Source of the DNA: Escherichia coli
Lineage (GTDB): Bacteria > Pseudomonadota > Gammaproteobacteria > Enterobacterales > Enterobacteriaceae
DNA length: 64,000 nt
Direction: 5' to 3' (one strand)
Assembly (NCBI RefSeq): GCF_045037415.1
Contig: NZ_CP173438.1
The translations under genes were made by a program, and so were the position numbers. Under the pieces are notes generated by a model that did no database searches, was not told the DNA's origin, and saw only the letters and a program-made list of their open reading frames with translations. Positions 3,849 to 50,947 of the stretch are shown one piece after another; the first letter of the stretch is position 1, and every line of letters starts with the position of its first letter.

Positions 3849-4544
3849 ATGTTAGAAGATCTCAAACGCCAGGTATTAGAAGCCAACCTGGCGCTGCCAA
3901 AACACAACCTGGTCACGCTCACCTGGGGCAACGTCAGCGCCGTTGATCGCGGGCGCGGCGTCTTTGTGATCAAACCTTCCGGCGTCGACTACAGCATCAT
4001 GACCGCTGACGATATGGTCGTGGTCAGCATCGAAACCGGTGAAGTGGTTGAAGGTACGAAAAAGCCCTCCTCCGACACGCCAACTCACCGGCTGCTCTAT
4101 CAGGCATTCCCGTCCATTGGCGGCATTGTGCACACACACTCGCGCCACGCCACCATCTGGGCGCAGGCGGGTCAGTCAATTCCGGCAACCGGTACCACCC
4201 ACGCCGACTATTTCTACGGTCCCATTCCCTGCACCCGCAAAATGACCGACGCAGAAATCAACGGTGAATATGAGTGGGAAACCGGTAACGTCATCGTAGA
4301 AACCTTCGAAAAACAGGGTATCGATGCAGCGCAAATGCCCGGCGTCCTGGTCCATTCTCACGGCCCATTTGCATGGGGCAAAAATGCCGAAGATGCGGTG
4401 CATAATGCCATCGTGCTGGAAGAGGTCGCTTATATGGGTATATTCTGCCGTCAGTTAGCGCCGCAGTTACCGGATATGCAGCAAACGCTGCTGGATAAAC
4501 ACTATCTGCGTAAGCATGGCGCGAAGGCATATTACGGGCAGTAA
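3849..4544 (+). CDS. araD: L-ribulose-5-phosphate 4-epimerase
   Basis: 231-aa [38 protein letters not shown]...; matches AraD. Confidence 0.97.
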
Positions 4545-4547
4545 TGA

Positions 4548-4563
4548 CTGTATAAAACCACAG
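4548..4563 (+). promoter_or_regulatory. LexA (SOS) box upstream of polB
   Basis: CTGTATAAAACCACAG fits the CTGT-N8-ACAG LexA consensus; polB (dinA) is a known SOS gene. Confidence 0.7.
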
Positions 4564-4576
4564 CCAATCAAACGAA

Positions 4577-4605
4577 ACCAGGCTATAATCAAGCCTGGTT
4601 TTTTA
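4577..4605 (+). terminator. Putative intrinsic terminator after araBAD
   Basis: 8-bp stem accaggct / agcctggt with 7-nt loop followed by T6 run; loop contains TATAAT hexamer. Confidence 0.5.
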
Positions 4606-4618
4606 TTGGATTTTCAGC

Positions 4619-6970
4619 GTGGCGCAGGCAGGTTTTATCTTAACCCGACACTGGCGGGACACCCCGCAAGGGACCGAAGTTTCCTTCTGGCTGGCGACGG
4701 ACAACGGGCCGTTGCAGGTTTTCCTTGCGCCGCAAGAGTCCGTGGCGTTTATTCCTGCCGATCAGGTTCCCCGCGCTCAGCATATTTTGCAGGGTGAACA
4801 AGGCTTTCGCCTGACGCCGCTGGCGTTAAAAGATTTTCACCGCCAGCCGGTGTATGGCCTTTACTGTCGCGCCCATCGCCAGTTGATGAATTACGAAAAG
4901 CGCCTGCGTGAAGGTGGCGTTACCGTCTACGAGGCCGATGTGCGCCCGCCAGAACGCTATCTGATGGAGCGATTTATCACCTCACCGGTGTGGGTCGAGG
5001 GTGATATGCGCAATGGCGCTATCGTTAATGCCCGTCTGAAACCGCATCCCGACTATCGTCCGCCGCTCAAGTGGGTTTCTATTGATATTGAAACCACCCG
5101 CCACGGTGAGCTGTACTGCATCGGCCTGGAAGGTTGCGGGCAGCGTATCGTTTATATGCTGGGGCCAGAGAATGGCGACGCCTCCGCGCTCGATTTTGAA
5201 CTGGAATACGTCGCCAGCCGCCCGCTGCTACTGGAAAAACTTAACGCCTGGTTTGCCAACTACGATCCTGATGTGATCATCGGTTGGAACGTGGTGCAGT
5301 TCGATCTGCGAATGCTGCAAAAACATGCCGAGCGTTACCGTATTCCGCTGCGGCTGGGGCGTGATAACAGTGAGCTGGAGTGGCGCGAGCACGGCTTTAA
5401 AAACGGTGTGTTTTTTGCTCAGGTTAAAGGTCGGCTAATTATCGACGGTATCGAGGCGCTGAAATCCGCGTTCTGGAATTTCTCTTCATTCTCGCTGGAA
5501 ACCGTCGCTCAGGAGTTATTAGGCGAAGGAAAATCTATCGATAACCCGTGGGATCGAATGGACGAAATTGACCGCCGTTTCGCCGAAGATAAACCTGCGC
5601 TGGCAACTTATAACCTGAAAGATTGCGAGCTGGTGACGCAGATCTTCCACAAAACTGAAATTATGCCGTTTTTGCTCGAACGGGCGACGGTGAACGGCCT
5701 GCCGGTGGATCGACACGGCGGTTCGGTGGCAGCGTTTGGTCATCTCTATTTTCCCCGTATGCATCGCGCTGGTTATGTCGCGCCTAATCTCGGCGAAGTG
5801 CCGCCGCACGCCAGCCCTGGCGGCTACGTGATGGATTCGCGACCTGGGCTTTATGATTCGGTGCTGGTGCTGGACTACAAAAGCCTGTACCCGTCGATCA
5901 TCCGCACCTTTCTGATTGATCCCGTCGGGCTGGTGGAAGGCATGGCGCAGCCTGATCCAGAGCACAGTACCGAAGGTTTTCTCGATGCGTGGTTCTCACG
6001 GGAGAAACATTGCCTGCCGGAGATTGTGACTAACATCTGGCACGGGCGCGATGAAGCCAAACGTCAGGGTAATAAGCCGCTTTCGCAGGCGCTGAAGATC
6101 ATTATGAATGCCTTTTATGGTGTGCTCGGCACCACCGCCTGCCGTTTCTTCGATCCACGCCTGGCATCGTCGATCACCATGCGTGGTCATCAGATCATGC
6201 GGCAAACCAAAACGTTGATTGAAGCGCAGGGCTATGACGTTATCTACGGCGATACCGACTCAACGTTTGTCTGGCTGAAAGGTGCACATTCGGAAGAAGA
6301 AGCAGCGAAAATCGGTCGTGCACTGGTGCAGCACGTTAACGCCTGGTGGGCGGAAACGCTGCAAAAACAACGGCTGACCAGCGCACTGGAACTGGAGTAT
6401 GAAACCCATTTCTGCCGTTTTCTGATGCCAACCATTCGCGGGGCCGATACCGGCAGCAAAAAGCGCTACGCCGGACTGATTCAGGAGGGCGACAAACAGC
6501 GGATGGTGTTTAAAGGGCTGGAAACCGTGCGCACCGACTGGACGCCACTGGCCCAGCAGTTTCAGCAGGAGCTTTACCTGCGTATCTTCCGCAACGAGCC
6601 ATATCAGGAATACGTGCGTGAAACCATCGACAAACTGATGGCGGGTGAACTGGATGCGCGGCTGGTTTACCGTAAACGCCTTCGCCGTCCGCTGAGCGAA
6701 TATCAGCGTAATGTGCCGCCTCATGTACGCGCCGCTCGCCTTGCCGATGAAGAAAACCATAAGCGCGGTCGCCCCTTGCAATATCAGAACCGCGGCACCA
6801 TTAAGTACGTATGGACCACCAACGGCCCGGAGCCGCTGGACTACCAACGTTCACCACTGGATTACGAACACTATCTGACCCGCCAGCTACAACCCGTAGC
6901 GGAGGGAATACTCCCTTTTATTGAGGATAATTTTGCTACACTTATGACCGGGCAACTTGGGCTATTTTGA
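4619..6970 (+). CDS. polB: DNA polymerase II
   Basis: 783-aa ORF, GTG start; contains polymerase motifs (YGDTDS); length matches Pol II. Confidence 0.95.
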
Positions 6971-34940: not shown

Positions 34941-35336
34941 TTAACGACGCATACTCTTTGACAACATCATCTGCCACTTCTGCTCGCGGTTAAGTTCCGT
35001 GAGCGGAACGGCAGGAATACGCGGCGTCTTTCTTACGCCGACTAATTTATCCCGGCTGTTATTGCGCAGACGCGCGTAAATTTGCTCATCGATATCAACC
35101 ACTTTAACCAGTCGCTGACACTGGCATCCCCGCCCTTCCAGCTTATTAGGGATCATCTTAACTTCGCAGCTTATTTCTGTGACTTCCGACAGAATATAAG
35201 TCAGGGTATTAACCGCCTTGCTGTGTTCAATATCGAAATGAATAGAGATCTCTCTTGCTATCACCCACCGATTTTCAGCCATCATCCATTCGGCGATTAA
35301 CAAGTAGAGTGGTTTTTCAACATATCCTTCACACAT
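34941..35336 (-). CDS. caiF: Transcriptional activator of cai/fix operons
   Basis: Internal Met MCEGYVEKPLYLLIAEWMMAENRWVIAREISIHF... gives the 131-aa CaiF; track ORF is 5'-extended. Confidence 0.9.
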   Translation of the reverse strand: MCEGYVEKPLYLLIAEWMMAENRWVIAREISIHFDIEHSKAVNTLTYILSEVTEISCEVKMIPNKLEGRGCQCQRLVKVVDIDEQIYARLRNNSRDKLVGVRKTPRIPAVPLTELNREQKWQMMLSKSMRR

Positions 35337-49237: not shown

Positions 49238-49573
49238 TGCCTGCGGAAGTTACCGTTAATCGATTATATATTTTCTCCATGAATACATCATAAATATAAT
49301 TGATGCTTTTTCATTGTGAAAGATAAAATATTTCATTTGGCTGTAAAACGTGAACTGTATAACAAATAGCAGGAAAACTGAATAAAAAACTAATTAACGC
49401 AACCTTAAAACGAAAAATTATAATTGTCGCTCTTCCCCACTTTAATTACTCTCATTGCCACAACGTTGCTTTACATCATTAATAAATACGCATCAAGGAT
49501 AGTTAGCATGTATTTGCTTAGAAAGTAAAAGTCGTTTTTCTGAGCCAGGCATTCTTGTTCTGGAGAGAATATA

Positions 49574-50947
49574 ATGAGTTCCGTACTTGAAACTGATAAA
49601 TCATCCGCATCCGATTCACTGCCTTTAATACAACGGATCAGCTATGGTTCGCTGGATGTTGCAGGTAATCTGCTCTACTGTTTTGGCTCCACCTACATTC
49701 TCTATTTCTACACTGACGTGGCGGGCATAAGCCTTGCCGTAGCTGGCATCATCCTGCTACTGGCGCGTATTGTAGACGGTATCGATGCCCCGGTATGGGG
49801 GATTATTATTGATAAAACGCATTCCCGCTACGGTAAATGTCGGCCGTGGTTTTTATGGTTGCCATTACCTTTTGCTGTATTTAGCGCACTCTCATTCTGG
49901 TCGCCAGATATCAGTATGACAGGTAAAACCATATATTCAGCAATATCGTACATGTTAGCCAGCATTCTTTTTACCGGTTTAAACACGCCGCTAAGCGCAA
50001 TATTACCTTTGATGACGTTATCACCAAAAGAACGGTTGGTATTAAACTCTTACCGGATGACCGGCGGGCAAATTGGCGTGTTATTAATGAATGCGACGGC
50101 GCTACCGTTAGTGGCTTTTCTTGGAAACGGTAATGATAAGGCAGGATTTATTTATACTGCTATCGTCTTTTCCGTAATCTCCTGTGCGCTAACGCTATTT
50201 GCCTTCAAAAATATTCGAGAACTGGATACCGACAAAATACAGCAGGAACCACGTCTGCCGATGAAAAAGAGCTTTTCGGCAATGAAAGGCAACTGGCCGT
50301 GGATCCTGATGGTGCTGGCAAATCTCATCTTCTGGATTGCCTTACAGCAGCGCAACACAACCATTGTTTACTATTTAACCTACAACCTGGATCGCAAAGA
50401 TTTAGTTCCCTTGATCAACAGCCTCGCCACCATTCAGATTTTGTTTATCATCGCAATTCCGTTTTTCAGCCGTTACCTCTCCAAAACCTGGATTTGGATC
50501 ACCGGCCTGCTGGTCGCCATGTTCGGCGGAGGACTGATGTGGCTGGCTGGAGACAATATTCCTTTGATGATTGCCGCCTGGATGCTGGCGAATATTGGCA
50601 GTGGCATTGCCTGCTCTATGCCCTTCGCCATGCTTGGTTTCGCGGTTGATTTTGGTCGCTGGAAAACAGGGATTAAAGCTACCGGCATTCTAATCGCCTT
50701 CGGCAGTACCTTCTGCATCAAGATGGGCAGTGGTATCGGCACCGCCTTCGCCGCCTGGATTATGAACAGCTTTGGCTATATTCCCAACCAGCCACAAACT
50801 GCCGCCGGTCTGGACGGTATTAGCTGGGCGTTTATCTGGGTGCCAGCCGTGCTCTTTGCACTCGCCGCCATTCCACTGCTCTTCTTTCGTAAATATGAAG
50901 CGATGGAAGAGTGCATCCAACACGATTTGCAAGTTCATAACCCTTAA
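49574..50947 (+). CDS. Glycoside-pentoside-hexuronide (GPH/MFS_2) family cation symporter, accessory
   Basis: 457-aa ORF with about 12 TM segments and GPH-like N-terminus (similar to YicJ/YagG/melibiose-type carriers); not at this position in K-12. Confidence 0.8.
   Translation: MSSVLETDKSSASDSLPLIQRISYGSLDVAGNLLYCFGSTYILYFYTDVAGISLAVAGIILLLARIVDGIDAPVWGIIIDKTHSRYGKCRPWFLWLPLPFAVFSALSFWSPDISMTGKTIYSAISYMLASILFTGLNTPLSAILPLMTLSPKERLVLNSYRMTGGQIGVLLMNATALPLVAFLGNGNDKAGFIYTAIVFSVISCALTLFAFKNIRELDTDKIQQEPRLPMKKSFSAMKGNWPWILMVLANLIFWIALQQRNTTIVYYLTYNLDRKDLVPLINSLATIQILFIIAIPFFSRYLSKTWIWITGLLVAMFGGGLMWLAGDNIPLMIAAWMLANIGSGIACSMPFAMLGFAVDFGRWKTGIKATGILIAFGSTFCIKMGSGIGTAFAAWIMNSFGYIPNQPQTAAGLDGISWAFIWVPAVLFALAAIPLLFFRKYEAMEECIQHDLQVHNP

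Follow-up and report, generated by a model that had tools for sequence, protein, structure and literature searches.

The araD–polB intergenic region

The window analysed here, a 64,000-nt stretch of Escherichia coli DNA (contig NZ_CP173438.1), carries the end of the arabinose operon immediately followed by the gene for DNA polymerase II. The 601 bases around the junction are 100% identical to several complete E. coli chromosomes in which they are annotated as araD and then polB, and in the identical strain E. coli SK1144 the genes run araC / araB-araA-araD-polB-rapA; all those from araB to rapA lie on the plus strand of the window, and araC is divergent. Open reading frames and annotation place the araD stop codon TAA, which ends the araBAD coding sequence, at 4542–4544 (plus strand; ORF 3849–4544) and polB, with a GTG start, at 4619–6970 (plus strand), leaving positions 4545–4618 as the complete intergenic gap of 74 bp. 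Its counterpart in K-12 MG1655 lies at 65781–65854 on the minus strand, and throughout the analysis MG1655 coordinates were obtained as 70399 minus the window position. A weak Shine–Dalgarno-like GGA at 4608–4610 (plus strand), 8 nt 5′ of the GTG, is the candidate ribosome-binding sequence of polB, and in other genera purine-rich GGGA or GAGA occupies the equivalent place. Further downstream, near the 3′ end of polB and upstream of rapA, a polB-internal RNA 3′ end maps to MG1655 63552 on the minus strand (window position ~6847), and the supplement of Adams et al. 2021 lists this position among the 3′ ends altered by inhibition of Rho.

The first regulatory feature of the spacer is a LexA (SOS) box, CTGTATAAAACCACAG, at 4548–4563 on the plus strand, an exact CTGT-N8-ACAG of the gammaproteobacterial type with an AT-rich spacer; the corresponding 20-mer LexA footprint covers 4546–4565, or −50 to −31 when counted from the mapped polB start site described below. 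Two matches to CTGT-N8-ACAG were found in the 64 kb, against 0.67 expected; the other one, CTGTGACTTCCGACAG at 35177–35192, has a GC-rich spacer, unlike genuine LexA sites, and probably matches by chance. Across 79 aligned sequences the CTGTA and CAG half-sites of the polB box showed no variation. LexA footprint and ChIP evidence is reportedly contained in the studies of Lewis 1994, Fernandez de Henestrosa 2000 and Wade 2005. The preliminary description of this DNA, made from its letters, had called CTGTATAAAACCACAG a LexA-consensus box, and it is indeed the polB SOS box already on record, located 47 nt ahead of the polB transcript that UV induces (PMC3009722); polB also appears in the list of LexA/SOS regulon genes (PMC6590174). 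The region is the same element as the E. coli polB (dinA) SOS operator–promoter: GACTGTATAAAACCACAGCC upstream of polB is identical to that of K-12, so that the operator is without differences, whereas the −10 hexamer (TATAAT in the window, TATACT in K-12) and two bases in the tail of the T-run differ.

The araBAD terminator hairpin

Folding of the spacer revealed a hairpin that begins 31 nt 3′ of the araD stop codon and is co-directional with the operon. Its 5′ arm, AAACCAGGCT, occupies 4575–4584, a 7-nt loop, ATAATCA, follows at 4585–4591, and the 3′ arm, AGCCTGGTTT, occupies 4592–4601, all on the plus strand. The hairpin RNA folds with −16.2 kcal/mol (z = −4.7 against shuffled sequences), UUUUUUAUU directly follows the stem, and the spacer as a whole also folds better than shuffled sequence (z = −4.3). 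The T-run TTTTTTATT at 4599–4607 (plus strand), in which T residues at 4599–4604 are followed by ATT, would provide the U-tract of a terminator. Read as promoter DNA, the same bases correspond to the spacer between −21 and −12, including a C at −13 (5′ arm), to positions −5 to +6 (3′ arm) and to positions +4 to +12 of the polB leader (T-run). The stem comprises 10 bp, or 11 with a closing G–U pair; an earlier reading of these letters as a hairpin with a T-run was right, and the 8-bp stem given with it was too short.

An automated covariation count across loci found 84% of the cells paired and no excess covariation, because the almost invariant stem hardly varies. Folds of individual sequences nevertheless revealed a fully compensated stem in two Buttiauxella species, where AAGTGGTC/GACCACTT replaces AACCAGGC/GCCTGGTT; the automated count missed this compensation because the Buttiauxella loop is 1 nt shorter. 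One-sided stem changes in several genera produce G–U pairs (GTCTGG, CCAGGT), which are tolerated only in plus-strand RNA, and Siccibacter carries a matched one-pair deletion in the stem (CCAGC/GCTGG). The T-rich tail was conserved in all loci with an intact hairpin. A search of Rfam identified no family at this place; its only match was sub-threshold, to the C0465 sRNA on the minus strand at 4568–4685 (23.5 bits against a gathering threshold of 40, E = 0.045), and probably reflects generic hairpin resemblance. We also considered the hairpin as a minus-strand terminator and rejected it, because the U-tract that it would have on that strand, CGTTTGATTG, is poor and the hairpin has no gene converging on it.

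The polB promoter and start site

The hexamer TATAAT lies at 4584–4589 on the plus strand, its first T being the last base of the 5′ arm and the other five bases belonging to the loop. The preliminary description had proposed it as a possible polB −10, to be compared with mapped transcription start sites, and the mapped sites bear the proposal out. The supplementary start-site table of Kim et al. 2012 (PMC3415461) assigns to polB a start at MG1655 65803 on the minus strand, with the upstream sequence GACTGTATAAAACCACAGCCAATCAAACGAAACCAGGCTATACTCAAGCCT, which corresponds to a T at window position 4596 (plus strand) and to a 23-nt leader. This start is 7 nt after the hexamer and within the 3′ arm of the hairpin, a position compatible with the loop hexamer as −10. 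For Klebsiella pneumoniae the same source gives a polB start at 69499 on the minus strand, with a 24-nt 5′ UTR and an upstream sequence ending in GGCTATAATCAGGCCTG (PMC3415461), which is the orthologous position, 8 nt after the hexamer. Support amounts to 2 reads in E. coli and 4 in Klebsiella, low counts that arise because polB was repressed by LexA under the conditions used. A UV tiling array (PMC3009722) independently placed the induced polB start at ~4594, in agreement with 4596; the Cappable-seq and ROSE supplements held no entry at 65800–65805 and none for polB. The polB leader RNA beginning at 4596 is U-rich and without structure (z = +1.1).

Upstream of the hexamer, the position of the −10 and of the start site points to CAGCCA at 4561–4566 (plus strand) as a weak −35-like hexamer, overlapped by the LexA site. 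It matches TTGACA at three of six positions across a 17-bp spacer, and nothing near TTGACA was found at the 16–18 bp expected of a −35 element. A simple promoter scan accordingly found no −35/−10 pair in the spacer because the −35 is poor. TATAAT itself is not above chance in the window (17 occurrences against 22.5 expected), and the significance of this hexamer therefore comes from its conservation and from start-site mapping, not from the match itself. Five of the 17 occurrences cluster within ~310 bp at 49263–49575, which suggests, from base composition, a very AT-rich intergenic or foreign segment there. TATAAA within the LexA box was tried as an alternative −10 and rejected, as no start is mapped for it and such a transcript would self-terminate at the hairpin.

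A second low-count start (2 reads) was assigned to polB in the same data set, at MG1655 65946 on the minus strand, or window position 4453, in the 3′ end of araD (Kim et al. 2012, PMC3415461). Just upstream of it the window reads GGGTATATT and K-12 reads GGGGATATT.

Insulation of polB from arabinose induction

The hairpin had been taken for the araBAD terminator, and both the literature and expression data back this assignment. According to what is cited in a bioRxiv preprint (10.1101/2020.03.05.979765), the element was named as the araBAD terminator by Lee et al. 1986 and its strength was measured in Chen et al. 2013. In RNA-sequencing of enterohaemorrhagic E. coli (EHEC) with and without L-arabinose (PMC11127945, Supplementary Data 1), araD rose 98-fold, araA 59-fold and araB 43-fold, whereas polB, directly downstream, rose 1.65-fold. 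The same data set contains an internal contrast, as ygeA downstream of araE was co-induced 149-fold (PMC11127945). These values are indirect evidence that transcription stops here in vivo, probably exactly at this hairpin. The Term-seq supplement of Adams et al. 2021 holds no araD 3′ end because the ara operon was uninduced there.

In the reporter assay cited in the same preprint (bioRxiv 10.1101/2020.03.05.979765), the araBAD terminator fell in the lowest-strength quartile, which sits awkwardly with strong insulation in vivo. An embedded polB promoter that inflates the downstream reporter signal could explain the low apparent strength, and reporter measurements of this 'natural terminator' are thus likely to be confounded by the promoter that it contains.

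Conservation across Enterobacteriaceae

We collected 80 Enterobacteriaceae loci by a scan with the PolB N-terminus. The upstream neighbour was araD in nearly all 80, with spacers ranging from 74 bp to ~1.5 kb. The −10 hexamer was TATAAT in 63/80 and TATACT in the other 17/80, with nothing else seen; it was separated from the LexA box by exactly 20 nt in 77/80, and lay 29–33 nt from the start codon in the 76/80 loci for which the start-codon pattern was correctly located. Within the loop the hexamer bases were invariant and the other bases varied among species. Insertions always fell between the araD stop codon and the LexA box, so that LexA box, hexamer and start codon move as one block; spacers of up to 220 bp contained REP-like elements and those of 300–1,500 bp contained whole genes.

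Several of these insertions are worth recording in themselves. GC-rich palindromes of the REP/BIME kind (for example GCCGGATAAGCGCAGCGCCATCCGGC) were repeatedly inserted just 3′ of the araD stop codon and never inside the LexA–hairpin–polB block (loci L030, L035, L036, L039, L045, L055, L056, L063, L069, L070 and L074). A plus-strand ORF of ~210 aa lies between araD and polB in L012, L020, L024, L025 and L038, and in Superficieibacter the 3′ end of the ~210-aa ORF extends across the LexA box as far as roughly the −10 hexamer. Two rare E. coli loci, in EC42405 (L083, 370–1800) and SCU-301 (L084, 368–1800), have araD and the polB LexA box set apart by a ~1.4-kb island that contains three genes on the minus strand, one of them annotated SMI1/KNR4. 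A strong hairpin terminator belonging to araD itself is present in both; their LexA box, CTGTACAAAATATCAG, is a variant of the Citrobacter/Salmonella-like kind, and TATAAT and the hairpin of polB both remain intact. In Siccibacter turicensis (L072, ~2430–2470) the gap between LexA box and hexamer is shortened to 10 nt by a deletion of 10 bp.

The state of the hairpin followed the distance between araD and polB. All 52 loci in which araD abuts (spacer ≤230 bp) had an intact hairpin, as against 9 of the 25 loci with a spacer of ≥300 bp, the hairpin being degraded in the other 16 of these (Fisher p = 1.5e-10, a value not corrected for phylogeny). Degraded hairpins were found in Salmonella, Phytobacter/Kosakonia, Pseudocitrobacter, Superficieibacter and some Citrobacter. 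In the long-spacer loci araD usually had its own hairpin and T-run just after the stop codon; the hexamer and the LexA box were kept in all of them, the 5′ arm was mostly kept, and the 3′ arm was the part that decays. Conservation of the 5′ arm exceeded 90% in the 79 sequences, including those with a decayed 3′ arm. Because the hexamer is kept despite decay of the hairpin, the −10 is selected independently of the hairpin. As judged from these alignments, the persistence of the 5′ arm would fit a role as promoter spacer, including the C at −13, and selection on the 3′ arm would seem to act chiefly in loci where transcription arriving from upstream leads directly into polB. The 3′ arm appears to be selected only for its terminator function; the intact hairpins in nine long-spacer loci and in the rare E. 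coli indicate that termination of araBAD may not be the only role of the hairpin as a whole.

Alleles of the −10 hexamer

K-12 MG1655 differs from the window at three positions of the spacer, one of which turns the hexamer into TATACT. The 'perfect TATAAT' of the preliminary description is therefore present in the window, yet it is one allele of an A/C polymorphism at window position 4588, which is −8 relative to the start site. Counts in complete E. coli genomes, made with a 35-nt query and every 28-mer seed covering the polymorphic base, gave 2,396 with TATAAT and 2,927 with TATACT (about 44% versus 54%). The tail of the T-run is likewise polymorphic (ATT or GAT, at 4605–4606), and all four combinations of hexamer and tail alleles occur, O157:H7 having TATAAT with GAT and F11 having TATACT with ATT. 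Both hexamer alleles were found within each of the genera Escherichia, Citrobacter, Raoultella, Lelliottia and Pluralibacter, and at least five genera besides Escherichia show the A/C toggle, indicating that the switch happened repeatedly.

According to work of the Hengge laboratory, a C at −13 together with TATACT characterizes −10 elements preferred by sigma-S. The K-12 allele, GCTATACT, fits this pattern, whereas the window allele, GCTATAAT, combines the C at −13 with the sigma-70 consensus hexamer. The A/C difference at −8 may tune the use of sigma-70 versus sigma-S. In K-12, polB reportedly reaches full expression only with RpoS (Dapa 2017, as summarised in PMC6590174). Differences between lineages in Pol II levels, whether basal or RpoS-dependent, and with them in stress-associated mutagenesis, could have this polymorphism as their source, a possibility that is cheap to test.

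A probable double reading, as RNA and as DNA

Taken together, these data make it very probable that the 74-bp spacer is a compact dual-use module, which acts as the araBAD terminator when read as RNA and as the LexA-controlled polB promoter when read as DNA. The preliminary description had suggested overlapping terminator and promoter functions, and the start site within the 3′ arm, the named araBAD terminator and the insulation of polB from arabinose induction show that suggestion to be correct. In RNA arriving from upstream, 4575–4607 would form a Rho-independent terminator of araBAD, a GC-cored hairpin followed by a U-tract, which would keep the very strong arabinose-induced transcription out of polB. 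In DNA, the 5′ arm would be the promoter spacer and the −10 would consist of the last stem base together with the loop; initiation would take place inside the 3′ arm. The polB mRNA that begins at 4596 is without the 5′ arm and so cannot form the terminator; transcripts of araBAD, or those from K-12 65946, carry both arms and the U-tract and would be expected to terminate. The LexA box, at about −48 to −33 from the start at 4596, overlaps the polB promoter including its weak −35, and LexA bound there would block the −35 region and keep initiation repressed until DNA damage triggers LexA cleavage; LexA presumably acts by occlusion of that region.

Other explanations of the same features have to be weighed against this dual reading. 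The hairpin might be solely the araBAD terminator, with an incidental TATAAT in its loop and polB transcribed from a promoter further upstream, for instance inside araD, or by read-through. The chance-level frequency of the hexamer in the window, the missing good −35 and the low-count start within araD at window position 4453 would all be explained in this way, but an incidental hexamer would hardly be kept in 80/80 loci, including the 16 with a decayed hairpin, while the other loop bases vary, or be followed 7–8 nt later by mapped starts in two genera. A transcript starting inside araD would, moreover, contain the complete terminator, and read-through is minimal, at 1.65-fold for polB against 98-fold for araD, and we therefore regard an incidental TATAAT as very unlikely. 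A different relation between hairpin and gene, attenuation as at frd/ampC, would place the polB start upstream of the hairpin, which would then tune polB. Such a start could use the TATAAA at 4551–4556 in the LexA box, which matches five of the six −10 consensus positions, and attenuation would account for the persistence of the hairpin in some loci in which araD has its own terminator. Yet no start is mapped at ~4563 in either E. coli or Klebsiella, where the mapped starts fall within the 3′ arm, and Salmonella, Phytobacter/Kosakonia, Pseudocitrobacter and Superficieibacter have lost the hairpin and kept the LexA box and hexamer; an attenuator required by polB would not be expected to decay like this, and attenuation is extremely unlikely to explain the junction.

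The inverted repeat could also have been selected as DNA rather than for termination in RNA, as a cruciform or a protein-binding palindrome that forms part of the polB promoter. Conservation of the 5′ arm where the 3′ arm has decayed, and retention of the hairpin in the rare E. coli that have a separate araD terminator, are in keeping with a function in DNA. The one-sided stem changes, however, yield G–U pairs in plus-strand RNA, A–C mismatches on the other strand and a mismatch in a DNA palindrome; intact stems are always followed by a T-run, integrity tracks abutting araD transcription, and the element is known in the literature as the araBAD terminator. Against this evidence, selection as a DNA palindrome is exceedingly improbable. 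The dual reading of terminator and promoter might, finally, extend to a functional coupling, in which RNA polymerase released at the araBAD terminator would stay DNA-bound and start again from the polB −10, located in the hairpin that had just stopped it, the 1.65-fold rise of polB would represent hand-off and not read-through, and the recurrent A/C change at −8 would tune how sigma-70 and sigma-S share the promoter between lineages. We consider such coupling unlikely; if it were true, arabinose catabolism would mildly raise Pol II expression.

Discussion

Earlier work had already described each of the three features, LexA box, terminator and start site, and the locus is in this respect known. 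What the present analysis adds is a comparative case that terminator and promoter functions are separately selected, the recognition of the perfect TATAAT as one allele of a balanced, recurrent A/C polymorphism, and a caution on reporter measurements of the araBAD terminator. The element is conserved yet ordinary compact gene regulation and its practical value is modest. It offers a teaching example of one 33-bp sequence that is read twice, as an RNA terminator and as a DNA promoter, with a downstream mRNA that is immune to the terminator. In engineered strains, the control of polB can be changed by a deletion running from araD across the spacer, as in Δ(araD-polB), or by one with an endpoint close to it.

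Compared with the araBAD terminator of the literature, the element has the same hairpin and U-tract just after araD, and the literature as cited in the preprint mentioned above treats it as a terminator only. Overlap of terminator and promoter is also found at the phiX174 T_H terminator and pA promoter, where it likewise confounds the measurement of termination strength; that phage element is unrelated in sequence and is without a repressor operator. The closest analogue is probably the overlap of the frd terminator with the ampC promoter–attenuator in E. coli, reportedly described by Grundstrom and Jaurin in 1982, in which one hairpin at a co-directional junction likewise is said to serve as the terminator of the upstream operon and as part of the control region of the downstream gene. 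At frd/ampC, transcription starts upstream of the hairpin, which attenuates ampC, whereas at araD–polB it starts inside the 3′ arm and the polB mRNA escapes the hairpin.
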